From IMG/VR virus record IMGVR_UViG_3300048833_000177, positions 1-58,593 of that record: a stretch of 58,593 bases of DNA; one strand, given 5' to 3'. Shown piece after piece: positions 1 through 21,541 of the stretch. Under the pieces are notes generated by a model. It was not told the origin of the DNA. It saw nothing but the letters and a program-made list of their open reading frames with translations, and ran no database searches. Position 1 is the stretch's first letter. Every line of letters begins with the position of its first letter. This stretch comes from a virus (taxonomy: Duplodnaviria; Caudoviricetes). The position numbers and the translations under genes are program-made.

Positions 1-824
1 CGGGAATGCTCGGCGAGGATGCGCTGCGCGATCTGGTCCGATGGCATCTCCAGGGAGAAGAAGCCGACGACGCCCGGCTTTTCGCCTTCCGCCTGCCGCT
101 CCATCAGCCCGCGCGCCACGGCATAGGAAATGTTGATCGCCAGCGCCGATTTGCCTGAGCCGGTCGCGCCGGCGAGGATGACGAGGTCGGAGCGGTGCAG
201 TCCGCCCAGCGCGTCGTCGAGGCGCTGTAGCCCGGTCGACAGGCCCGCCAGCACCCCGCCGCGGGAATAGGCCCGGGCCGCGATGTCCACAGCCCGGGAC
301 GCCGCGGCGTTGAAGCTTTCAAACCCGCTTTGCGATGACAGCGGCGGTCGGAGATCGTTGATCACCGTCTCGACGCGCTCGAGCCGCTTGGTCGCTGGCA
401 TCGGCCGCCCGGCCAGGATGTCGGCCATCTCCTCTTCGAAGACGAGATAGATCGACCGCGTGATGGCGTCGTTCTTCACGATTTTGGCGTACTCGATCGC
501 GTCCGCGACCTTCTTCGGCGCGGCATTCCACAGCCGCATTAGGTAGTCGAAGCCGGCCATGTCACCGACCTTCATCTCCGCCGCATAGGGCTTCATCGAG
601 ATCGGCGTGGCGACCTGCCCTCCTTCGATCAGGCTGCGGATCATGTCGAAGATGCTGCCGTGAATCGGCTCGTAGAAGTCCGCCGGCGAGAGCGTCTGCC
701 CGATCTTCGACAGCCAGTCGTTCTCGTTGAGCAGAGCGCCGATGACCATCTGCTCGGCGTCGACATTGTGCGGCAGCTTGCGCTGGTCGAGCGGCGTGCC
801 GTCCATCTTCATCACCGCGCCCAT
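1..824 (-). CDS. dnaB: Replicative DNA helicase DnaB-like, N-terminal part (runs off the left edge; missing from the ORF track)
   Basis: Manual translation from ATG at 824 (TGATG overlap with the upstream gene): LPHNVDAEQMVIGALL...DFYEPIH...GLSTGLQRLDDALGGLHRSDLVILAGATGSGKS (Walker A)...GFFSLEM. Confidence 0.95.
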   Translation of the reverse strand, partial: MGAVMKMDGTPLDQRKLPHNVDAEQMVIGALLNENDWLSKIGQTLSPADFYEPIHGSIFDMIRSLIEGGQVATPISMKPYAAEMKVGDMAGFDYLMRLWNAAPKKVADAIEYAKIVKNDAITRSIYLVFEEEMADILAGRPMPATKRLERVETVINDLRPPLSSQSGFESFNAAASRAVDIAARAYSRGGVLAGLSTGLQRLDDALGGLHRSDLVILAGATGSGKSALAINISYAVARGLMERQAEGEKPGVVGFFSLEMPSDQIAQRILAEHS

Positions 825-1813
825 CAGGCTGCCTCACCGGCTGTTGCGGCGCCGATGCGCTGGCGCGCAAGCTCGGCATATTCCGGGTTGAGTTCGATGA
901 GGGTGCTGTCGAGGCCAAGCGCCTCAGCAACGACGGCCACGGTCCCTGAGCCGCCGAACGGGTCGAGCACTCGGCCTGGCACGCGAGGGAAGGCAGAGCA
1001 CAGGCCTCCGCAATCCGTGGCGGCGCCACATGCCCCGCACGTCGTCTTCGGCACTCCGGCTCGGATGCAACGCTCGGCCAGCGCGCGTGGGAACGTCGCG
1101 AAGTGCGCGCCGCGGTAGCCTTCAATATTGAAAGTCCAGACGTTCCGCGGGTTCCGCATCTCCGGCACATAGGTTTCAACCCATGTGCCGGGCCGGTTTT
1201 GCCCCTTCGTGGAGCCTTTGGCCGGCTTGTATTGCCCATCCTTGCGCCGGGCGTGCGCGCCGCCCGTGACTGGTTCCTTGATCGCCTCGACGTCGAAGAA
1301 GTAATCATCCGACTTGGTCAACAGCCAAATCTTCTCATGCACGGCGGCCGGCCGGTCGAAGACGCTCTCTGGCTTCGGGTTGGTCTTGTTCCAGACGATC
1401 TCCGATCGCACCCACCAGCCATCTTCCTGCAGAGCGATTGCCAGCCGGTTCGGCAGCATGCAGAGGTCTTTCGGCTTGAAGACGCCGCCGATGGTCGAAA
1501 ATGGCTTGTCGCGGAATGTGCGGTCATCGTTGATGACATCCTCGGCAGCCCGGCCATTCGGCGTCGTGGCATAACAGTCTCCGTAATTGACCCATGCCGT
1601 GCCCTGGGGCTTCAGCACGCGACGGACATCGCGGAAGACGTCGACCATGACAGCCATGTGCTCGCCGACCGTCGATTCAAGGCCTATCTGTCCAGCGACG
1701 CCATAATCACGCAGGCCCCAATATGGCGGCGACGTAACGACACAATCGAAGTGCGCGTCGGGAATCTTCCGCAGTTGCTCGCGGACGTCGCCGACCAGGA
1801 TGGACACGGTCAT
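824..1813 (-). CDS. Orphan N4-cytosine/N6-adenine DNA methyltransferase (beta class)
   Basis: Catalytic VTSPPYW near the N-terminus, HFATFP, and SAM-binding VLDPFGGSGT at the C-terminus. Confidence 0.93.
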   Translation of the reverse strand: MTVSILVGDVREQLRKIPDAHFDCVVTSPPYWGLRDYGVAGQIGLESTVGEHMAVMVDVFRDVRRVLKPQGTAWVNYGDCYATTPNGRAAEDVINDDRTFRDKPFSTIGGVFKPKDLCMLPNRLAIALQEDGWWVRSEIVWNKTNPKPESVFDRPAAVHEKIWLLTKSDDYFFDVEAIKEPVTGGAHARRKDGQYKPAKGSTKGQNRPGTWVETYVPEMRNPRNVWTFNIEGYRGAHFATFPRALAERCIRAGVPKTTCGACGAATDCGGLCSAFPRVPGRVLDPFGGSGTVAVVAEALGLDSTLIELNPEYAELARQRIGAATAGEAA

Positions 1814-2778
1814 GCCGAAAACACTTCCATCTGCTCATCCGCCAGATCGGCGATGCGTGGGCATGGCTCTGCGTCATCAGCGCGGAGGCCGAAGGGGTAG
1901 GCGAAGCGCCTGGCGAACTGGACGATCTCGAGCGCGCGGAGAGCGGAGAGCAGCGCTGGCGCGTCGATGGGGCTGAGCGCGAGGTCGTCGAGGTCGAGCG
2001 GTACCGGCACGCGATCGTCGAGGCTGGCGAGCCGGAAGGATTGGCGAGCGAGCGCGGCGCCCGCCTTCACTTTAGCGCGCAGCGCGGGCTTGCTGATCTC
2101 GTCGGCGCGGGCGATCAGCGTCTCGAGATCGCCGAACCGGCCGATCAGTTCCGCAGCGCCCTTCTCCCCGATCCCGGGGATACCGCTGATGCCGTCGATC
2201 GAGTCGCCGGACAGCGCCTGGGCATGCGGCACCTGCCATGGGTAGACGCCGAACTTCGCGACGACATCGTCTTCACCGAGCATCTTGCCGAACGTGCGGC
2301 CGTCGTCCTGCTTGGCCATCGGGTTGTAGATCGCGACGCCGGCCCGGATCAGCGCCATCATGTCCTTGTCGACGCTGATGATGCAGGTCGCCATGCCGGC
2401 CTCTTCGGCGAGGCGCGCATAGGTGGCGATCAGGTCGTCGGCCTCATAGCCCCGCAACTGGACCGCGTGCAGGCCGAGCCGCGGCACGATCTCGCGGCAG
2501 AGGCGCAACTGCGGCGGCAAGGCCGGATCATGCGTGCGGCCGCTCTTGTATGTCGGCAGGATTCGGTGCCGCCAGTTCGGGCCCGGCGCGTCGAAGATCA
2601 CCGCCGCATGCGTCGCCATCTGGGGCTTTCCGAAGTTGCCGAGGCAGGACCAAACCAGATCAAGGAACTTGCCAACCGCGCCGACCGGCAGGCCGTCGCT
2701 GCGGATCTGCTGGTTGTCCTTCGTCGAGTGATGGGCCCTGTGGACCAGCCCGTTCCCGTCTATCAGTAGGAGGGACAC
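1810..2778 (-). CDS. Stand-alone 5'-3' exonuclease/flap endonuclease (PolA N-terminal type)
   Basis: LLLIDGNGLVHRA, WRHRILPTYKSGR, GYEADDLIAT, SVDKD, and the H3TH motif ALSGDSIDGISGIPGIGEKGA. Confidence 0.93.
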   Translation of the reverse strand: MSLLLIDGNGLVHRAHHSTKDNQQIRSDGLPVGAVGKFLDLVWSCLGNFGKPQMATHAAVIFDAPGPNWRHRILPTYKSGRTHDPALPPQLRLCREIVPRLGLHAVQLRGYEADDLIATYARLAEEAGMATCIISVDKDMMALIRAGVAIYNPMAKQDDGRTFGKMLGEDDVVAKFGVYPWQVPHAQALSGDSIDGISGIPGIGEKGAAELIGRFGDLETLIARADEISKPALRAKVKAGAALARQSFRLASLDDRVPVPLDLDDLALSPIDAPALLSALRALEIVQFARRFAYPFGLRADDAEPCPRIADLADEQMEVFSA

Positions 2779-6550: not shown

Positions 6551-6637
6551 TCAGTGGACTCCGATGATGGCGGCGATGGTCATGGCGGCGGTAACCACCA
6601 AGATGATCACCACCATGATGCGCTGGACGAGGCCCAT
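6551..6637 (-). CDS. 28-aa single-pass membrane peptide
   Basis: MGLVQRIMVVIILVVTAAMTIAAIIGVH; TAATG overlap with the cro stop. Confidence 0.4.
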   Translation of the reverse strand: MGLVQRIMVVIILVVTAAMTIAAIIGVH

Positions 6638-6903
6638 TAGGAGGCGTCCGCCAGCGTCGGCGACTTGCCCATGATCTCTTTGGGCGAGGCCGGGTTGCTC
6701 AGCAGGAACTGCTCGAGCTTTCGCATCTTGTCGGTGGTGACGCTCTCGCCATCCAGAACGCGCTTGATGAACAAGCTGTCCTTCAGCGCCACGCGGCCGA
6801 GCGTCGAAGGACCGCACCCATGCTTGTCGCAGTAGGCTCGGCACATCTCTTGGACCTCTTGATAGAGGCGATCGACGGGCGTGGTTTCGGCTGCTTTCGT
6901 CAT
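6637..6903 (-). CDS. Cro-like repressor
   Basis: Small HTH (CGPSTLGRVALKDSLFIKRVLDG) divergent from CI. Confidence 0.8.
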   Translation of the reverse strand: MTKAAETTPVDRLYQEVQEMCRAYCDKHGCGPSTLGRVALKDSLFIKRVLDGESVTTDKMRKLEQFLLSNPASPKEIMGKSPTLADAS

Positions 6904-6915
6904 GCCGTGAGTAAT

Positions 6916-6933
6916 TGCATAATTCCTTATGCA
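6916..6933. promoter_or_regulatory. Operator palindrome (OR) TGCATAA-TTCC-TTATGCA
   Basis: Perfect 7-4-7 inverted repeat between cro and cI; matches the site at 9316. Confidence 0.8.
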
Positions 6934-7005: not shown

Positions 7006-7725
7006 ATGAGTACGAGCGAACCCACGGTTCTTCAGAAGAACCTCAAGGCCCTCATGGACGCCCAGGGATTTTCTGGGCGAGGGCTTGGCGCCGCCGCTGG
7101 CACCAGCGAGATGGCCGTGGGTAAGATTCTCACTGGAGAATCAAGGAACCCGCGCTCTGACACGCTGATGAAGCTGGCCCGGGCGCTCGGCGTGTCCGTG
7201 GCCGAGTTGACGGGCGAAAGGGATATCCCGATCGCTGCTTTTGATCGTCAGCAGAAACCGACAGTTGCAAATGATTCTATTCAGCGCTTGCATGTCCGTT
7301 GGGAAGCGGCAGCGGGGGCATGGCTAGAAGTGGACACGCATAGGGACGCCGACGAGTTTGCGGACGCTCCAATCACCAGTGGCGGGACCGCTTTCAAATT
7401 CTTGGCCCGAGTAAAGGGCAATTCGATGGACCTCGAGGGCATGCCGGACGGCAGTCTTGCTGTCTGCCTCGAGTGGGAAGAGGTCGGGCGAGACCCCAAA
7501 GACGGCGATATTCTTCTGGTCCAGCAAACGAGAGACGGCGGCCTCATGGTCGAGACCTCGATCAAGATGGTGAAAGTCTTCCGCGACCGATACGAGCTGC
7601 ACCCTCGATCTTCGCAGCCTGGCTACAAGGTGATCACCATACCCAAGGACGCCGAGCCGAACGACGGCAGAGAGGTCAAGATTCTTGGTCTCGTTCTCGG
7701 TTCCTACAAGGAGTTCGTCAGATGA
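7006..7725 (+). CDS. CI-like repressor (XRE HTH + S24 autopeptidase)
   Basis: N-terminal HTH, Ala-Gly cleavage site (AAAG), catalytic VKGNSM and SIK. Confidence 0.93.
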   Translation: MSTSEPTVLQKNLKALMDAQGFSGRGLGAAAGTSEMAVGKILTGESRNPRSDTLMKLARALGVSVAELTGERDIPIAAFDRQQKPTVANDSIQRLHVRWEAAAGAWLEVDTHRDADEFADAPITSGGTAFKFLARVKGNSMDLEGMPDGSLAVCLEWEEVGRDPKDGDILLVQQTRDGGLMVETSIKMVKVFRDRYELHPRSSQPGYKVITIPKDAEPNDGREVKILGLVLGSYKEFVR

Positions 7726-8114
7726 AGGCCAGCATCGCCGCCGCCATCGCGCTGATCTCGATCGCCAGCGCAGCTTGCACGTCGACCGAGCAGCCGCGCC
7801 AGGCTGCGGTGACCGCGACGCCTTCTCCGCTCTCCGCGAAAGACACCGCTGCGATCAAGGCCGGTGTGACGAAGGTGCTGCGCGATCCCGCCAGCGCTCA
7901 GTTCGGCGAGTTCGCGGCGGTCACCACCTCCGACGGAACCCGCAAGGCCTGCGGCTACGTCAACTCCAAGAACGGATTCGGCGGCTACTCCGGCATGAAC
8001 CTCTTCATCGGCTCATTCTCCGGATCGAACTTCACGCCGACCGACATCGGATCCGACGAGACAGACCTCCGCATCATGCGCGGGTTCTGCGCTCAGGCTG
8101 GCATCAGCATCTGA
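7722..8114 (+). CDS. Lipoprotein co-transcribed with cI
   Basis: Signal peptide with lipobox-like ASAAC; LRDPASAQF...CGYVNSKNGFGGYSG. Confidence 0.75.
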   Translation: MKASIAAAIALISIASAACTSTEQPRQAAVTATPSPLSAKDTAAIKAGVTKVLRDPASAQFGEFAAVTTSDGTRKACGYVNSKNGFGGYSGMNLFIGSFSGSNFTPTDIGSDETDLRIMRGFCAQAGISI

Positions 8115-8798
8115 TCATGCCGCCTGAGGCCTGAAATCTGTTTCGAGCCGATTGCCCTTGCCTTCGTTGCAGTCGGCGCAGAGGATCTGCAGGTTGTTCT
8201 GGTCGAGACGCAGGTGCCAATTGAACCGTAGCGGCTTGATGTGGTCGACGTTCAGGACCGCTCCGGTCTCAGGCGACGCGCCGCAGCAGCCGCAGCGACG
8301 GCCGAGGCGGACTAGCGCGTCGATTCGAGCCCGTTTCCATTCGGGCGACTGGTAGAACGCCTGGCCCTCTTCGACGGTTTTGTCGGGCGCTCGGCGCGCA
8401 GTGACCGCCATCGGACGCCGAACCTTCAGCATGGCCACCAGCCAGCCAAGGATAGCATACTTGTCGCCCGCCATGCCGCCGGGCGGGCCGGAAATGCCTT
8501 CCGCGCGCATGATCTCTTGCATCTGGCCAATCAGATTGATGCCTTCGTCGCTGATGCTGTGCTTGCGCAAATGCGACCTGATGACTCGCATCTCGGCGAG
8601 GTGCTGTTGCTGGTCGCGTTTGGGCTTGCGCTTTGCCGATCGCTGGGGAACGGCTGCCGAGCGCAGCAGCTGACCGCTGGCGAGCGCTTTTTTCCAACCC
8701 TTCGGCGGAGGCCAAGCGACGCCCCAGGCCTCGATCTGCTCGCGCGTCCAGCCGCCGAGCGCAGTCTGCGCTGAATCAATCTCAGACATCGTAACCAT
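8115..8798 (-). CDS. HNH endonuclease with an N-terminal Trp/Pro-rich domain
   Basis: CGCCG...VDHIKP...NLQILCADCNEGK; N-terminal GGWTREQIEAWGVAWPPPKGWK. Confidence 0.88.
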   Translation of the reverse strand: MVTMSEIDSAQTALGGWTREQIEAWGVAWPPPKGWKKALASGQLLRSAAVPQRSAKRKPKRDQQQHLAEMRVIRSHLRKHSISDEGINLIGQMQEIMRAEGISGPPGGMAGDKYAILGWLVAMLKVRRPMAVTARRAPDKTVEEGQAFYQSPEWKRARIDALVRLGRRCGCCGASPETGAVLNVDHIKPLRFNWHLRLDQNNLQILCADCNEGKGNRLETDFRPQAA

Positions 8799-8799
8799 C

Positions 8800-9245
8800 T
8801 GAGCCTTTTCCTTTTTTTGAGCGCCGATCTGTCAATCGGTTCAGCACTGCATCTGCCATAAGACCCCCGACCCCCATGGTCTGAGACCATGGAAGCCAGG
8901 GGCCCTACAGTTCCGACAAGCCTGTCAATTCGGACGAGACACTTGCAGAGCTGCCCCGGCGCCTTGCGGTCGCCGATATCCCTATAGTTTCCCCAGCCGC
9001 ACCTTCAGGATCTCGACCCCGCGCGCGCCGCTTCTGCTGGGAGCGCCCGCGACGGATCGCGAGCCAGCGGCATTGAAAGCCACCGGCTGGAACGGCGAGA
9101 GCGGCAGATATGGGGATTGAACGATCGAGCGACGCAATATCTTGCGTCTGAGGCCTGATTCGCCTATATCGGCTGGGCCTCGCGCTCGGTGCTGTCATCA
9201 CCGAATCTTCCGCCCTCGGGTTTCCAGACCCGGGGGCGGACTCGT
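8800..9245 (-). ncRNA. Candidate structured RNA/leader upstream of the HNH gene
   Basis: No convincing ORF; many hairpins (8824-8839, 8874-8892, 9048-9061, 9131-9148, 9186-9204, 9210-9239); minus-strand TTGACT at 9267-9272. Confidence 0.5.
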
Positions 9246-9311
9246 TTTGGGGCCGATCCTGATCGTAGTCAAGCGATCGAATAATTCTGCATAAAAAGTT
9301 TGTCGCTTCCG

Positions 9312-9340
9312 TTGACGCATAATCTTTTATGCGCTAGCTC
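9312..9340 (+). promoter_or_regulatory. Early promoter (PL-equivalent) with operator CGCATAA-TCTT-TTATGCG at 9316-9333
   Basis: TTGACG -35 and GCTAGCTC alphaproteobacterial-type -10; the palindrome lies between them; half-site TGCATAA at 9288. Confidence 0.8.
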
Positions 9341-9371
9341 TTGCATCATCGCTTCCCGACGCGAGGTGCAA

Positions 9372-9626
9372 ATGCCATCCCCATCCGAGACGACTGCTGC
9401 TGACGCGAGAGCGCTGCTTATGGCTGCGCAGAGCGCGGTCTCCGAGCACATGGATGCGATCGTCGCCCGCTTCAAGCCGGGCGTGAAGATCACCGTTCTG
9501 GTGCGGACGCCGGAGTTCCCGGGCGGCGAGCGCGACTTCCTAATGACCGACGATGATCTCGGCGACGCGATCAAGGCGCTCGAGATTCGCCGCGCTGCCG
9601 GCATGGACGCGGAGGCTCGCGGCTGA
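9372..9626 (+). CDS. Hypothetical protein
   Basis: RBS GAGG; first gene of the operon. Confidence 0.7.
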   Translation: MPSPSETTAADARALLMAAQSAVSEHMDAIVARFKPGVKITVLVRTPEFPGGERDFLMTDDDLGDAIKALEIRRAAGMDAEARG

Positions 9627-9931
9627 TGCCATCCACCAAGCACACGCTGGAAACGACGTGGCCGTATGGCTGCGATGACGTCGAGGTCGAGATCGGCTTC
9701 ACGTTCGAGCCGGGCTATCCCGGCGACCCGATCGGCTATTGCGCCGACACCGCGGAGATCGAGAGCGTCTTCATCGTCTCCGGCGGCCGCCGCCCGGCTT
9801 CGAACGCCATGATCGAGGCGATCAACGCCAGCGCCGAGATTTACCAGCAGATGGTCGATCTCGCGAACAGCGAGCGCGTGCCGGATCCGGATGCCGCGCG
9901 CGACGCTATGGCCGATCTGGTGCTGCCATGA
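9626..9931 (+). CDS. Hypothetical acidic protein
   Basis: TGATG coupling. Confidence 0.7.
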   Translation: MPSTKHTLETTWPYGCDDVEVEIGFTFEPGYPGDPIGYCADTAEIESVFIVSGGRRPASNAMIEAINASAEIYQQMVDLANSERVPDPDAARDAMADLVLP

Positions 9932-12661: not shown

Positions 12662-14278
12662 ATGAACGCTGTCGCCCAATTCCAGCCACCACGCCTGCCC
12701 TACCATCCCGTTATGCAGGAGCGCTTCGGCGTCGATGCCAGCGGCTGGAAGGCGCTGGTCGAGGCCATATATCCGCTCGCCAAGACGCAGGACTCGGTCG
12801 CCATGGCGCTGTCCTACTGCAAGGCGCGCAAGCTCGACCCGTTCAAGAAGCCTGTTCACATCGTCCCCATGTGGGATGCCAAGGCGGGCCCCGAGGGGAC
12901 CGGGGCTTTCGTCGAAACCGTTTGGCCTGGCATCTCTGAGGTCCGCACCACCGCCTTCCGCACCGGGCAGTATGCCGGCTGCGATGAGACCGAGTTCGGC
13001 CCGGAGATCACGCAGACCTTCACCGCGCTGAAGGACAAGTGGGAGAACCGTCGGAAGGTCGGGACCGAGGAGGTTTCCGTCACGGTCACGTTCCCCGAAT
13101 GGGCGCGCATGACGGTCTACCGCGACCTCGGCGGCCGCACCTGCAAGTTCGTCGGACCGAAGGTCTACTGGCTCGAGAGCTATGCCAGCCAGGGCAAGCT
13201 CGACATCCCCAATTCCATGTGGGCCGACCGCCCGATCGGCCAGATCGAGAAGTGCGCGGAGGCTGCCGCGCTGCGCAAGGCCTTCCCGGAGGAGATCGGT
13301 AACGACCTGACGGCGGAGGAAATGCACGGGCGCCGCGTCGATGCCGACTTCGCGGGGCCGGAGGTCGCTGAGCCCGCGCGCCGCCAGCCGCCGGCGCCGC
13401 CCAAGGTCGAGGATGCCGTCGTCACGGAGGTCAAGCCGGCCGGTCGCGCTCCGAAGCCACCGCATGACCCGGACAACGGCGAGATCGACCAGCCGCAGGC
13501 CGCCGCTCCGGAGCCGGTCAAGGTCACCAGCGGCAGCGCGGCGCCGGCGGAGCAGCAGGACACCACCAAGGCGAGCCGCAAGCCCCGCGGCTGGGCCAAG
13601 CTCTTCGAGCATGCGCGCATCGTCATCGAGGACGGCAAGTTCACGAAGGACGCCGATGGCTTCGCCACGATCGGCGAGTTGGCCTCTGATGGCGACATCG
13701 CCGACGCCGACCTCGTCCTGAAGGACAACGTCATCGTCAAGAACGAGGTGGTGCTGCCGGGCGCCGAGCCTGCGGTCGACCCGGCCGCGGCCATGGCGAA
13801 GTTCGAACGCGACTTCGCGGCGGCCGACAGCCTCGATGCGCTGAATGCCGCCGCCCAAGCGAACGAGGCGGCCTATCTAAAGCTCAAGGCGGCTGGACAG
13901 CACGCGCCGGCGGACAAGCTCTTCCGAGAGGCCGAGGCGCGGATCATGAAGGCCGACGCCGAGGCCGAAATGGCTGCCGGAAAGATCGCCGACCCGGTCT
14001 CCGCCGAGGAGCGCGGCCCGCCGGTCGATGACGACTTCCCCGGCGATCGCCCGTCCGCCAGCGCGGCGCCGGTCAAGCCGGAGAAGATGGAGCCGCCCGA
14101 ACTCGAAAGGTACATGCGCGCCTATATCGCTGAGGCCACCGACATCGAGGCGCTCAAGAAGCGCTGGTACATCGACGAAGACCTCCGCGACAAGCTGGAC
14201 GACAAGACCCGCGCGGAACTGCGGACGCTGTGGAAGGCCAAGACGGAAGAACTCCGCTCGGCCCAGGCTGGCGGCTGA
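12662..14278 (+). CDS. bet: Bet/RecT-family ssDNA-annealing protein with a long C-terminal extension
   Basis: CKARKLDPFKKPVHIVPMW, RTTAFRTGQYAG, W..RP..QIEKCAEAAALRKAFPEE. Confidence 0.88.
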   Translation: MNAVAQFQPPRLPYHPVMQERFGVDASGWKALVEAIYPLAKTQDSVAMALSYCKARKLDPFKKPVHIVPMWDAKAGPEGTGAFVETVWPGISEVRTTAFRTGQYAGCDETEFGPEITQTFTALKDKWENRRKVGTEEVSVTVTFPEWARMTVYRDLGGRTCKFVGPKVYWLESYASQGKLDIPNSMWADRPIGQIEKCAEAAALRKAFPEEIGNDLTAEEMHGRRVDADFAGPEVAEPARRQPPAPPKVEDAVVTEVKPAGRAPKPPHDPDNGEIDQPQAAAPEPVKVTSGSAAPAEQQDTTKASRKPRGWAKLFEHARIVIEDGKFTKDADGFATIGELASDGDIADADLVLKDNVIVKNEVVLPGAEPAVDPAAAMAKFERDFAAADSLDALNAAAQANEAAYLKLKAAGQHAPADKLFREAEARIMKADAEAEMAAGKIADPVSAEERGPPVDDDFPGDRPSASAAPVKPEKMEPPELERYMRAYIAEATDIEALKKRWYIDEDLRDKLDDKTRAELRTLWKAKTEELRSAQAGG

Positions 14279-20114: not shown

Positions 20115-20399
20115 ATGCCGCGCGCGCCGATGCTTGCGCCCGACGACGGCGCACGCCGACCATCGCCACCACGGCGCGGTCTGTCGTGCGCTGAATCGGC
20201 AGATTACATCGGCGTGTCCGTCACCAAGTTCCTCGAGATGGTGGATGACGGTCGCATGCCAAAGGCGAAGGAGATCGACCGTCGGCGCGTCTGGGACATC
20301 CGGGCGCTGGACCGGGCATTCGACATGCTGCCAGGCGATGAAGACGCCGGCGCCTTGGATGCAGGGGCCTTGCCGCAGAAGCGGGAGATCGTGCTGTAA
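20115..20399 (+). CDS. xis: Excisionase (AlpA-like HTH)
   Basis: RRGLS..ESADYIGVSVTKF..MV.DGRMP...RRVWD; directly upstream of int. Confidence 0.85.
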   Translation: MPRAPMLAPDDGARRPSPPRRGLSCAESADYIGVSVTKFLEMVDDGRMPKAKEIDRRRVWDIRALDRAFDMLPGDEDAGALDAGALPQKREIVL

Positions 20400-21541
20400 T
20401 GTGCTTCATGGCGAACATCAGACTGAAACACGTCACCATCGACCGCTCGGAAGGGCTGGTCCGCTATTACCTGCGCCTGCCCGGCCAGAAGAAAATCCGT
20501 CTGCCCGGCAAGCTGGGCGACCCCGTTTTCATGAGCGCCTATCAGGCGGCCATCTCAGGCGTGCCCGTGCCGCGCCAGCCGGATGGCGCCGTCGCCAAAG
20601 CGAACAGCCGCGGCACCATGGTATGGTTGGTCGACGAGTATCTGCGCAGCGCTGCCTTCAAGGGGCTGGCGCCGGCGACGCAGGGCGCCCGGCGCAACAT
20701 CCTGAAGGTCATGCTGAAGACAGCCGCCGACGTCCGCGTGGCCGACGTCACCCAAGACGAGATCAGGAAGGCGCGGGATAGGCGCTCGGCTACGCCGGCA
20801 GCCGCCAACACCTTCCTGAAGGCAATGAGCCACCTCTTCACCTTCGCCATCGAATACAAGCACGCCACGAAGAACCCGGTCGAGGGCGTTGCGCGGCTGC
20901 CGTCGAAGACGAACGGGCACCACACCTGGACAGAGGCCGAGATCAATCGCTTTCTCGACCACTACCCGGTCGGCACCATGGCGCATCTCTGTCTGTGCAT
21001 CATGCTCTACACCGGCGTCCGCGTGTCCGATGCGGCCGTCATGGGCCGTCAGCACATCAGTAAGGGCTGGATCAGCTTTCGGGCGCAGAAGAACAGCGTC
21101 GAGGTCGACATGCCGGTCGCGCCGGAACTCCAGCGCGCGATCGACGCGGTGCGTGTCTCGCGCAAGGGCCACATGCACCTGCTGATCAACGAGTGGGACA
21201 AGCCGTTCTCGGTGAAGGGCCTGGGCCAGCGCATGCGGAAGTGGTGCGACAAGATCGGCCTAGAGCATTGCTCAAGCCATGGCGTGCGAAAGGCCGGCGC
21301 GACGATCGCCGCTGACAACGGCGCGACCGAGCACGAGCTCATGGCAACGTTCGGGTGGAACTCGCCGAAGCAGGCCGCGCTCTACACCAGGAAGGCGAAT
21401 CGTCGCCGCCTGGCGGGGTCCGGCGCCGCCAAGATCAGCCTCGGGAAGGGTGAGAACGGGAACGAAATTGTCCCGCCGTCCGAGGGGGTGGAAACCGAGC
21501 GGGACAATCAGCCCGAAAAACGCAAGGAAATCAGTGCATGA
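20399..21541 (+). CDS. int: Tyrosine integrase
   Basis: YTGVRVSD (R), QKN (K), HGVRK (HxxR), TFGW, ALYTR (Y). Confidence 0.95.
   Translation: MCFMANIRLKHVTIDRSEGLVRYYLRLPGQKKIRLPGKLGDPVFMSAYQAAISGVPVPRQPDGAVAKANSRGTMVWLVDEYLRSAAFKGLAPATQGARRNILKVMLKTAADVRVADVTQDEIRKARDRRSATPAAANTFLKAMSHLFTFAIEYKHATKNPVEGVARLPSKTNGHHTWTEAEINRFLDHYPVGTMAHLCLCIMLYTGVRVSDAAVMGRQHISKGWISFRAQKNSVEVDMPVAPELQRAIDAVRVSRKGHMHLLINEWDKPFSVKGLGQRMRKWCDKIGLEHCSSHGVRKAGATIAADNGATEHELMATFGWNSPKQAALYTRKANRRRLAGSGAAKISLGKGENGNEIVPPSEGVETERDNQPEKRKEISA

Follow-up and report, generated by a model that had tools for sequence, protein, structure and literature searches.

Does a nuclease gene that lies behind a long structured RNA encode one half of an RNA-associated nuclease, or is the RNA an element in its own right? 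This question arises from a 58,593-nucleotide stretch of phage DNA (IMG/VR record IMGVR_UViG_3300048833_000177; hereafter, the window). In its immunity region, a minus-strand gene for a 227-amino-acid HNH endonuclease (8115–8798) is preceded by about 450 nucleotides that seemed to be non-coding. The initial annotation suggested a ribonucleoprotein nuclease, a toxin with an RNA antitoxin, or an RNA-controlled defence gene. We found that the RNA is genuine, strand-specific, conserved, structured, and independent of the HNH gene, and that it belongs to an uncatalogued family. Our best reading is that it is an autonomous RNA of the immunity region that doubles as a leader for cargo. Specifically, we give about even odds (a probability of roughly 0.5) that the minus strand of 8822–9249, whose ends we infer, is a compact, double-pseudoknotted RNA that marks the immunity region, has its own promoter pointing toward the repressor, and acts in cis as a leader or "gate" with a cargo slot behind it.

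The minus strand of 8799–9249 is non-coding. The periodicity of GC content at third codon positions that is seen in the flanking genes is absent across 8800–9300, and we found no reading frame that is open through the whole core in all 24 family members that were compared, which bears out the claim that 8800–9245 lacks a credible open reading frame. We did consider that a 98-amino-acid reading frame (8905–9201) might be a decayed or translated gene. The window has this frame open, and the closest relative, L125, has a related frame of 110 amino acids. However, the substitutions between the two fall at 12, 6, and 9 sites by codon position, as compared to 16, 9, and 68 for the HNH coding sequence; L125 has a frame-shifting 1-nt indel; and the product has no match in Pfam. 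The decayed or translated gene can practically be dismissed.

The region was also said to be highly structured, and this was confirmed: the minus strand of 8799–9275 is predicted to fold at −232.7 kcal/mol (z = −5.35, with 0 of 100 shuffled sequences as good). Only the minus strand is far more stably folded than its shuffles (z = −2.20 for the plus strand). The RNA is also conserved. The RNA region is 91.5% identical to L125, and the core is 94.0% identical, versus 86.4% for the HNH coding sequence, so the RNA is more conserved than the gene downstream of it. Only on the minus strand do the substitutions in L125 preserve pairing, by way of G-U pairs, and one GNRA loop stays a GNRA loop (GCAA → GTAA).

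The core of the RNA (8835–9071, minus strand, about 235 nt) was found by nhmmer, by a DNA pattern, by blastn, and by a covariance model. From 5' to 3' on the minus strand, it contains helix P1 (9067–9071 with 9027–9031), hairpin P1a (9045–9064), helix P2' (9036–9041 with 8992–8997), helix P2 (9021–9025 with 8998–9002), a T-loop-like element (9005–9020, a label that was given by eye), the pseudoknot PK (9007–9011 with 8978–8983), hairpin P4 (8957–8975), a variable P5 (8909–8956), a long hairpin P6 (8859–8907), and a conserved GAACC tail (8838–8842). P1 crosses P2' and P2 crosses PK, which makes a double pseudoknot. Three of the sequence features that had been noticed at the outset have a place in this fold: the palindrome at 8874–8892 is the tip of P6, the GCAA tetraloop (8964–8967) caps P4, and the G-tract (8864–8875) is the 3' strand of P6.

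On the 5' side, the window has an extension of four or five hairpins (9072–9249, minus strand) that lies outside the family core. This extension is common only to L125, although its first hairpin is also present in L166. As compared to L125, conservation starts at about 9249, with 22 substitutions at 177 aligned positions within the extension; upstream of this point the L125 sequence is unrelated (45 of 78 aligned positions differ). On the 3' side, the leader ends with a tail (8799–8834, minus strand) that comprises a small hairpin (8824–8839), an A-run, and then a purine-rich stretch and the start codon of the HNH gene. The purine-rich stretch (about 8804–8813, minus strand) reads as a putative ribosome-binding site, and near it are the only 2 positions at which this tail differs from that of L125. 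The hexamer TGACAG does recur, as had been claimed, with three copies (minus-strand starts 9197, 8927, and 8834), and just 1 of 2,000 mononucleotide shuffles reaches that number. But two of the three copies are kept in L125 and none are present in the other 22 members that we scanned, so TGACAG is a quirk of this lineage and not a feature of the family.

Besides the window, we found the RNA core in 26 places: 20 contigs from IMG/VR, two metagenome contigs, one of 401 sampled genomes, one weak match to the model, and two Synechococcus phages in GenBank. Searches with nhmmer gave matches directly upstream of N-module genes (see below) in L016/L151 and L166 and another match 1.5 kb upstream of one in L011. 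A DNA pattern derived from these matches then identified the 20 IMG/VR contigs; because the pattern demands them, the motifs GGGTYRR, CCGNRAGG, and GGGGNNNGGGGGTCTT do not vary among those 20 loci. A second pattern (TGAGGAC...CCGNRAGG...GGGGGTCTT) matched 15 loci, all of which were known already. The two GenBank phages, Yong-M2-251 and Ssp-JY39, were found with blastn, and nothing is annotated under the match. (The window's own 8000–9700 has no close relative among the GenBank phages; it was other members that matched.) The first pattern also matched 1 of 401 genomes from one order and none of five named hosts, so the RNA is sporadic and phage-borne. There is a single copy of the RNA per genome. 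With the covariance model (R1), 24 members score 62–117 bits, of which 23 are seeds and the other is L226; L028 scores 24.6 bits. As to known families, the Rfam scan that had been proposed gave no match in the window to any family of Rfam 15 at its gathering score. With a threshold of E up to 10, 8600–9500 had eight sub-threshold matches, the best of which are noise and none of which is HEARO; and the RNAs of nine other member loci had no match at E up to 1.

Covariation, which had been proposed as a check, supports helices P1, P2', P2, P4, and P6 as well as the pairing PK. In an alignment of 23 sequences that was fitted to the model, with 22 pairs, 83.6% of the paired cells can pair, versus 71.7% for shuffled sequences (0 of 500 shuffles were as high). 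The covariation score was 0.354 versus 0.164 for shuffled sequences (again 0 of 500) and 0.08–0.12 if the partners were slid along the sequence, and 14 of the pairs have changes on both sides. Because the sequences are related to each other, these shuffle controls overstate the significance. P2' pairs in just 60.9% of the cells because of register shifts. A plain MAFFT alignment of the 23 sequences with RNAalifold yielded just 25 pairs, owing to register shifts of P1, P1a, and P2' among subgroups. We also used an alignment-free test in which partners were swapped between sequences. The permutations that matched the true partners numbered 1 of 2,000 for P1, 0 for P2', 5 for P2, 0 for PK, and 0 for P4 (each of 2,000). 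For P1, to which column counts are not applicable, the support is from the partner-swap test.

The core combines this pseudoknotted fold with invariant unpaired stretches, it is conserved between Rhizobiales-type prophages and phages that were recorded on Synechococcus, and conservation continues beyond P6 into the GAACC tail. Small ribozymes typically have crossing helices and invariant unpaired nucleotides. We asked if the RNA might be self-cleaving or otherwise catalytic and might process the 5' end of a cargo or antisense transcript. We think that this is highly improbable: no ribozyme family in Rfam matched at E up to 10 in the region from the window or at E up to 1 in the nine other loci, and the order of the helices does not match the classes of ribozyme that we considered.

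The RNA is always at the junction of the repressor (cI) operon and the early-left operon (RecT and integrase), and it is always oriented toward the repressor. In the window, the plus-strand immunity operon (7006–8114) includes a cI-type repressor (7006–7725, with HTH_3 and Peptidase_S24 domains from Pfam) and a lipoprotein-like gene (7731–8114, 127 amino acids, no Pfam family, with a signal peptide that was read by eye). This operon converges on the HNH gene, and the stop codons of the lipoprotein-like gene and the HNH gene abut. In the other loci, the convergent gene downstream of the RNA is often repressor-like: it belongs to the S24/HTH family F0 in 9 of 23 loci and to family F6 in 5 of 23. 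(The F6 member of L210 is an HTH_3 protein, and L214 also has an HTH protein as its convergent gene.) On the other side, about 15 of 21 loci have a divergent reading frame as their nearest upstream neighbor, as judged from a crude call based on GC3. The early-left operon encodes RecT and an integrase in the window and RecT in phage Yong-M2-251. Between the RNA and this operon are operator-like palindromes (GCATAA-N4-TTATGC), with a perfect copy at 9315–9334 and a weaker copy at 9283–9300, and a matching palindrome is found between the cro-like and cI genes (6915–6932). These are putative cI operators.

The promoter of the RNA is less clear. The TTGACT that had been proposed as a minus-strand −35 element is present at 9267–9272, but a sigma-70 scan of 8000–9500 did not call any promoter, and the flank is not conserved in L125 apart from the TTG, so its status is uncertain. 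In other members, a promoter-like sequence (TTGCAW-N14-TGC-GAAnnn) lies directly before P1, in place of the 5' extension. As to terminators, most loci lack an intrinsic terminator downstream of the RNA, which fits with transcription continuing downstream; P6 is followed by only 2–4 U. On the opposite strand, 9209–9250 is scored as an intrinsic terminator (plus strand, with a hairpin at 9209–9240 and a T run), and the same hairpin is the 5'-most hairpin of the RNA on the minus strand. It has a compensatory G:C → C:G change in L125 and L166. The cI-lipoprotein transcript probably stops at this terminator; if so, it would cross the HNH and RNA genes in antisense. There are equivalent opposite-strand terminators upstream of the RNA in L125, L166, and L218. 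One study of wastewater has libraries that are labelled as RNA-Seq (but are probably DNA), and two contigs from these cover 9017–9248 and 9111–9250. Their ends at 9248 and 9250 could be the 3' end of a plus-strand terminator, a 5' end on the minus strand, or simply the homology break, and we conclude nothing from them. A DNA run (X2) also has a homology break, with its joint at 9250.

Small antisense RNAs are known from other temperate phages, which raises the possibility that the mRNA of the convergent repressor operon is bound in its 3' part, through base pairing, by the transcript or by read-through from it, and that expression of the repressor falls as a result. The constant convergence of the RNA and the repressor operon fits this proposal, and so do the operator-like palindromes that adjoin the RNA's upstream flank. 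Furthermore, because the four plus-strand terminators lie beyond the RNA gene, read-through from the repressor operon would be fully complementary to the RNA. However, plain antisense action does not require a conserved pseudoknotted fold, and L219 has an opposite-strand terminator between the convergent gene and the RNA. Overall, we consider an antisense RNA of this kind to be unlikely.

We now turn to the gene behind the RNA. The HNH protein is composed of an N-terminal module (which we will call the N-module; amino acids 1–45, nucleotides 8664–8798), a helical middle (amino acids 60–130), and the HNH domain (about amino acids 140–227). It matches the HNH families of PHROGs, and its only Pfam matches are to HNH and HNH_5 (amino acids 169–223); for HNH (PF01844), the match is at amino acids 169–217 with E = 3.2e-8 and 34 bits, above the cut-off of 21.4. 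The AlphaFold2 model (mean pLDDT of 88.7) is most similar to the HNH protein of phage GVE2 (5h0o; Z = 9.8, rmsd = 3.7, 35% identity over 82 residues), and it also matches the HNH domains of Cap5, McrA, and Cas9. With these matches to PF01844 and to 5h0o, the protein belongs to the HNH endonuclease superfamily, which is marked by a beta-beta-alpha-metal finger with Cys and His motifs. PADLOC's PtuB models matched the HNH core only (E of 1.6e-7 or weaker), and no ATPase-sized reading frame that could encode PtuA, the partner of PtuB in Septu, adjoins the gene, whose neighbors are the lipoprotein-like gene and the RNA.

That this protein joins a GGWT..WPPPKGW domain to an HNH domain was correct, and the N-module is genuine and widespread. 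It is common in Streptomyces and in other phyla in which the RNA was not found, it is abundant as mini-proteins in the absence of either HNH or the RNA, and its C-terminal partner varies (HNH, none, or other). There is no model for the N-module in Pfam, PHROGs, NCBIfam, or PADLOC. Its fold was predicted from a 45-amino-acid protein (L047) with a pLDDT of 88.3. When this structure was compared to the PDB, VIA-align gave no chain with Z ≥ 2 among 48,161 and the best Foldseek hit had E = 6, which does not imply that the fold is new. A search of the ESM Atlas with amino acids 1–135 of the HNH protein gave no usable match. Our literature searches for the "WPPPKGW" motif and for phage "Yong-M2-251" found nothing, and the available part of 10.64898/2026.09.22.753630 mentions neither HNH nor the family RNA.

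What lies directly behind the RNA varies. An HNH gene is in this slot in 4 of 26 loci. The window and L125 have N-module-HNH, while L215 and L222 have HNH alone. The 40-residue N-module alone is there in three loci (L166, L211, and L028) and DUF5131 in two; at least 14 of the 26 loci have no same-strand gene behind the RNA. Thus, 7 of 26 loci have an HNH or N-module gene directly behind the RNA, and two more have one within 1.6 kb. These seven occupy both of the main RNA clades and are interleaved on the RNA tree with loci that lack such genes. Conversely, 19 of 26 loci have neither gene directly behind the RNA (17 if the two cases at about 1.5 kb count as linked), and 17 have neither within about 2.6 kb. 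(At one locus, L217, a DUF3800-VII RNA and a DUF3800 gene adjoin the family RNA.) Nor does the RNA go with the proteins: if we start from HNH or N-module genes, then the RNA is present in just 3 of 200 other loci (L011, L016, and L028), and so the proposed search upstream of the HNH protein's homologs went against the initial proposal.

As the RNA and the HNH or N-module genes mostly occur apart, an obligate RNA-nuclease particle is unlikely. Of the suggested RNA-associated nuclease, what stands is a structured minus-strand RNA directly upstream of the gene; what does not is a dedicated system, given those 19 loci. A looser version is that the RNA binds the N-module and/or the HNH protein and guides, activates, or restrains it, and the N-module with its varying C-terminal partner does resemble a constant binding module with variable effectors. 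The seven adjacent loci (and the two others nearby), spread over both clades, also speak for this version. But it would have to account for the 17 loci with neither gene nearby, for the near-absence of the RNA from the 200 loci, for the phyla that have the N-module and not the RNA, for the lack of a RuvC domain, of the IscB architecture, and of a match to HEARO, and for the lack of repeats or spacer-like variable segments. We consider it very unlikely.

Nevertheless, the seven loci across both clades leave some link between the RNA and the HNH or N-module genes to be explained. This residual link could reflect a leader that regulates these genes, a preferred insertion site, or weak binding. 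One such explanation acts at the level of DNA: N-module-HNH could be a free-standing homing-type endonuclease, or mobile cargo, that inserts beside the highly conserved RNA gene in relatives without it, and that perhaps cuts inside this RNA gene. As with homing endonucleases, HNH or N-module genes are present sporadically (7 of 26 loci) at one fixed site, and this site is beside an unusually conserved sequence. The N-module-only and HNH-only forms would then be decay products. Also, the HNH domain is nearest to a phage nicking enzyme (5h0o, as above), and both L125 and run X2 have a sharp break in homology at about 9249. On the other hand, the loci that we compared do not include a close HNH-free relative that would display a clean insertion, N-module mini-proteins are abundant where neither HNH nor the RNA exists, and unrelated cargo (DUF5131) in the same slot implies that a general hot spot would explain the data without homing. 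We consider a homing-type or mobile nuclease rather unlikely.

We return to our preferred reading of the RNA as an autonomous element that is also a leader. We propose that the family would be a fixed landmark of one type of temperate-phage immunity region, lying between the end of the repressor operon and the early-left operator and promoter (RecT ... integrase). The RNA would be transcribed from its own putative promoter toward the repressor operon. The region behind it would be a cargo slot, which may be filled by N-module-HNH, HNH alone, N-module alone, or DUF5131, or may have no same-strand gene. The folded core would then act with the long hairpin P6 and with the conserved tail to set how much transcription or translation from this promoter passes downstream, into cargo such as HNH if it is present, or else, as antisense, into the repressor operon. 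The HNH gene looks like an accessory gene (a "moron") that could be transcribed only through the RNA, which agrees with part of the suggested RNA-controlled defence gene; the control by the RNA, we infer. A difficulty is that at least 14 of the 26 loci have their next gene on the opposite strand, and a classical cis-regulatory leader would have no target at those loci unless the antisense control is real.

Furthermore, an ornate pseudoknotted fold with invariant unpaired bases exceeds the needs of a simple attenuator; it would be just as suitable for an RNA that binds a ligand or protein, for a ribozyme, or for an RNA that acts in trans. We also considered that this might be a trans-acting RNA gene (an "RNA moron"), that is, a discrete and stable RNA in lysogens or early infection that acts as a protein sponge, decoy, small-molecule binder, or regulator. 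This would explain why so many loci have no same-strand gene downstream and why many members have their own promoter-like sequence directly before P1. The compact fold, the GNRA-capped hairpin, the T-loop-like element, and a core that is kept from Rhizobiales-type to Synechococcus-recorded phages are also what we would expect. However, no terminator marks the 3' end in most loci, conservation extends beyond P6, no partner has been identified, and complementary target sites for one conserved G-rich motif are at chance levels in the window (12, versus 10.1 expected). A trans-acting RNA is a serious possibility, although not one that we would bet on. We think it quite improbable that the RNA is a phage-borne aptamer that responds to a ligand or protein and gates the output of its promoter into defence-type cargo (HNH or DUF5131) and, as antisense, into the repressor operon. 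A riboswitch would be expected to have functionally coherent genes downstream and an expression platform; here, the downstream genes are heterogeneous or on the other strand, and no clear terminator comes after P6.

In a group of temperate phages, the RNA thus holds a fixed and unannotated place at the decision center, at the head of a slot in which nuclease and candidate defence genes gather. If it is a sensor, then its fold would pass a cellular signal straight into the lysis-lysogeny switch. Few structured RNAs combine crossing helices with invariant junctions, and the majority of those that do have proved to be ribozymes, riboswitches, or components of RNA-protein machines. As two members lie in phages that have complete GenBank genomes and a named Synechococcus host, it may be feasible to delete the RNA, probe it, and map its transcripts, provided that the phages can be obtained. 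The 40-residue N-module is also of interest: it is very widespread and confidently folded, yet it belongs to no family and matches no known fold.

Finally, we compare the locus to known systems. As in IscB and its omega RNA (HEARO), the gene for an HNH-domain protein lies beside a large structured RNA. But here this does not signify an IscB-like guided nuclease, as had been recognized: the protein has only 227 amino acids and no RuvC domain, the IscB model (guided_IscB from NCBIfam) fits the HNH part alone (amino acids 157–222; 26.6 bits versus a cut-off of 175), and the RNA does not match HEARO or any other Rfam family. Also, the RNA and protein of IscB and other OMEGA systems are always encoded together, while here they are mostly apart. 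Type III toxin-antitoxin systems (ToxIN-like) are defined by tandem direct repeats of the antitoxin RNA; Tandem Repeats Finder gave no arrays in 8700–9400 with a minimum score of 30, so a type III reading of the suggested toxin with an RNA antitoxin lacks this feature. The free-standing endonuclease of phage GVE2 shares the fold of the HNH domain, but the window's protein, whose activity is predicted only, has the N-module and the helical middle domain in addition, and its gene is not beside terminase.

The immunity regions of temperate phages encode small RNAs such as oop of lambda, sar of P22, c4 of P1 and P7, and the CI RNA of P4. Like these, our RNA gene lies inside the immunity region, opposite to the neighboring regulatory genes, with its own putative promoter; unlike these, the RNA is double-pseudoknotted and is three to four times larger. 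Rfam's c4-a1b1 (from the C4 clan) matched the window at the level of noise (E = 3, 12.8 bits versus a gathering score of 46.7), and complementary target sites of the type used by c4 and the CI RNA, sought for the most conserved motif, are not enriched in the window. The RNAs beside cI in enterobacterial prophages (the STnc100/PasD type) are comparable as GC-rich, structured, unannotated RNAs that adjoin the repressor gene, but they differ in hosts, size, and fold, and STnc100 had no match in 8600–9500 at E up to 10. The put RNAs of HK022 are cis-acting antiterminators that lie beside the early promoters. Our RNA may resemble these as a folded RNA that directly follows a promoter where the immunity region ends and that may act on its own transcript, although the put sites are on the strand of the early operons, while this RNA is on the opposite strand, is much larger, and has one copy per genome. 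Lastly, the DUF3800 RNA motifs of Rfam are also conserved RNAs beside accessory genes of prophages; those motifs follow one gene family, whereas our RNA stays in position as the genes behind it vary.

The initial annotation had described 8800–9245, upstream of the HNH gene (8115–8798, minus strand), as a structured region without a credible open reading frame, and this description held up. We saw no codon-position G+C signal across 8799–9249, and found no tRNAs, no tandem repeats, and no match to any family in Rfam 15. Folded as RNA, the minus strand of 8799–9275 has an energy of −232.7 kcal/mol (z = −5.35), versus z = −2.20 for the plus strand. The closest relative with DNA available is locus L125 (HNH protein 91% identical). 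Between ~9249 and the HNH start codon, the window and L125 show 38 differences over 447 aligned positions (14 over 234 in the core of the RNA, 8835–9071), while in the HNH coding sequence, 93 of 684 positions differ, including 68 at third codon positions. So the "spacer" is more strongly constrained than the gene. Upstream of 9249, the two are unrelated in sequence. Many of the substitutions are compensatory or proceed via G-U pairs, on the minus strand only: for instance, CGGCG/CGCCG becomes CGACG/CGTCG, and the enclosed loop changes from GCAA to GTAA. A long hairpin has six changes and keeps its pairing in all of them. In 8905–9201, which the initial annotation had named as a possible decayed or translated ORF, the substitutions (12, 6, and 9 by codon position) show no codon pattern.

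Using nhmmer with the window's RNA, we found copies upstream of genes containing the N-module (the N-terminal ~40 amino acids of the HNH protein) in L016/L151 and L166; L011 was added with a profile of four sequences, and a pattern of three conserved motifs matched 20 IMG/VR contigs. blastn with two members found copies in Synechococcus phages Yong-M2-251 and Ssp-JY39, with no annotation under the match; these GenBank phages have a named host (OM868082.1, 16157–16393; PP438429.1, 4347–4583). A covariance model (R1) gives 62–117 bits for 24 members (23 seeds and Yong-M2-251) and 24.6 bits for the divergent L028, which the pattern did not pick up because its G-tract motif differs; its P4 loop departs from the motifs as well. 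The invariance of the three motifs in the 20 pattern-found loci is by construction. Of the six members found independently, L016, L166, L011, and L125 have all three motifs exactly. Nine other member loci had no Rfam match on the RNA at E ≤ 1. Among genomes, the pattern matched 1 of 401 sampled from the order to which a Mesorhizobium genome belongs, and none of 5 reached via other loci. Thus, the RNA is sporadic and is carried by phages, rather than being a housekeeping RNA of the host.

From 5' to 3', the strands are ordered P1-5', the P1a hairpin, P2'-5', P1-3', P2-5', a T-loop-like element, P2-3', P2'-3', an A-rich conserved linker, PK-3', P4, a variable P5, a long P6, and a conserved GAACC tail. 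PK-3' pairs with the 3' part of the T-loop-like element. Because P1 crosses P2' and P2 crosses PK, the fold is a double pseudoknot. The T-loop-like element (the likeness is by eye) is conserved and has two discrete versions, in 17 and 6 of 23 sequences. P4 has a GNRA loop closed by an invariant CC/GG, and P6 has a near-invariant G-rich 3' strand opposite a 5' strand that varies between C and U. RNAalifold reported compensatory changes in 11 of 54, 16 of 61, and 12 of 25 predicted pairs for 4, 5, and 23 sequences, respectively. In a model-fitted alignment of the 23 sequences, the 22 pairs of P2', P2, PK, and P4 are paired in 83.6% of cells (71.7% if shuffled), with a covariation score of 0.354 (0.164 if shuffled, and 0.08–0.12 with slid partners); none of 500 shuffles matched either value, and 14 of the 22 pairs vary on both sides. 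This alignment is imperfect and biased towards the model, as P2' has just 60.9% of its cells paired and, in the window, PK is off by one column. As an alignment-free control, we set the duplex energy of two strands taken from one and the same sequence against that of strands exchanged among sequences. Out of 2,000 permutations, the number that equalled the true pairing was 1 for P1, 0 for P2', 5 for P2, 0 for PK, and 0 for P4, in agreement with the alignment-based result. The RNA family is not specific to HNH genes. We put the probability that it is real, conserved, structured, and independent of HNH at about 90%.

We mapped the context of 24 loci with a crude GC3-based ORF call, and of L028 and Yong-M2-251 by hand. 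The RNA is directed at a repressor-type gene on the opposite strand: an S24/HTH protein (family F0) in 9 loci, family F6 in 5 loci (the member in L210 is HTH_3), or an HTH protein in L214. The upstream neighboring operon is divergent from the RNA in about 15 of the 21 loci that reach far enough, and in the window and Yong-M2-251 this early-left operon includes RecT. Directly behind the RNA, on the same strand, are HNH proteins (the window, L125, L215, and L222), N-module-only proteins (L166, L211, and L028), DUF5131 (L207:11117–11875, minus strand, and Yong-M2-251, L226:4286–5032, plus strand), small unknown ORFs (L216 and L218), or, in at least 14 loci, no same-strand gene. The DUF5131 protein matches candidate defense components PDC-M41B and PDC-M30B of PADLOC (E = 3e-106). 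The opposite strand of the slot carries lipoprotein-like genes, DUF3800 with the Rfam DUF3800-VII RNA, DUF6941, and small proteins that, judged by eye, resemble Arc. In L217, the DUF3800-VII RNA (745–834, plus strand, 58.9 bits) and the DUF3800 gene (839–1636, minus strand) immediately adjoin the RNA member. The space behind the RNA is a cargo slot, with the conserved RNA as its boundary.

AlphaFold2 models the HNH protein (mean pLDDT 88.7, pTM 0.48) as an N-module of three helices (amino acids 1–45; 8664–8798, minus strand), a helical middle domain, and the HNH domain. The HNH domain is most similar to the HNH protein of phage GVE2 (5h0o, Z = 9.8, rmsd 3.7, 82 residues), followed by the HNH domains of Cap5, McrA, PtuB, and Cas9 (Z = 5–7). 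The match to PADLOC's PtuB covers the HNH core only, and a PtuA-like partner is absent. The N-module (consensus EIEAAxTxxGGWTxxxLAxWGVPWPPPKGWK, 40 amino acids, loci L005–L204) is extremely conserved and is usually a stand-alone protein of 45–75 amino acids. It is very widespread, in phages, Streptomyces, Acidobacteriota, Elusimicrobiota, Bacteroidota, Patescibacteria, and Alphaproteobacteria. We found no model for it in Pfam, PHROG, NCBIfam, or PADLOC and, despite the confident AlphaFold2 model, no fold match in the PDB. In two Streptomyces genomes, N-module genes lie a few kb from both ends of the linear chromosome (L055/L056 and L058/L059), presumably in the terminal inverted repeats. A metagenome contig has four copies at a spacing of ~1.7 kb (L194:457–5573).

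In 7 of 26 loci, the gene immediately following the RNA is an HNH or N-module gene; the RNA tree places these loci in both of its well-supported clades, intermingled with loci without such genes. The initial annotation had proposed an RNA-associated nuclease system. A structured RNA does precede the HNH gene, but because each partner is mostly found alone, an obligate ribonucleoprotein is unlikely, and we give a dedicated RNA-nuclease particle very little credence. Three readings fit the link, in decreasing order of belief: the RNA is a leader through which any cargo in the slot must be expressed; the gene for the N-module-HNH protein is mobile cargo that perhaps encodes an enzyme of the homing type, with the conserved RNA gene as its landmark; or the N-module binds the RNA.

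The window (58.6 kb, 66% G+C) has a cro-like gene (6637–6903, minus strand), a palindrome (TGCATAA-N4-TTATGCA, 6915–6932), a cI-type repressor with HTH_3 and Peptidase_S24 domains (7006–7725, plus strand), a lipoprotein-like gene (7731–8114, plus strand) convergent with the HNH gene, two related palindromes (9283–9300 and 9315–9334), and, from ~9372, a plus-strand operon that includes RecT (12662–14278) and integrase (20399–21541). On the early-right side (824–2778, minus strand) are an N6/N4 DNA methylase (824–1813) and a 5'-3' exonuclease (1810–2778). The stops of the lipoprotein-like and HNH genes are on adjoining bases (8114/8115), which leaves no space for a terminator between them. Past the HNH and RNA genes, the plus strand has a hairpin and T run that resemble an intrinsic terminator (9209–9250), so read-through from the cI-lipoprotein operon would be antisense to both. 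Opposite-strand terminators beyond the RNA gene are also found in L125, L166, and L218, and most loci have no intrinsic terminator 3' of the RNA. Overlap is therefore expected between transcripts from the RNA unit and those from the repressor operon.

Tentatively, we favor a cis-acting gate: the folded core, with P6 and the tail, would set the distance that transcription or translation from the RNA's putative promoter can cover, be it into cargo genes or, in antisense orientation, into those of the repressor operon. The expected overlap would also suit a pure antisense immunity RNA, which seems unlikely to us. A link at the DNA level is compatible with any function of the RNA, so our estimates for the alternatives overlap; with that proviso, we consider a trans-acting RNA doubtful and a ribozyme the least probable of all.

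The gene order of the window resembles the layout of phage lambda, and the operator-like palindromes (GCATAA-N4-TTATGC) on both sides of the immunity block are placed like OR and OL. Rfam 15 does not list the family, its double-pseudoknotted fold, or its role as the constant boundary of a slot for cargo, and a limited literature search found none of these; RNA genes within phage immunity regions are a kind that is already known.
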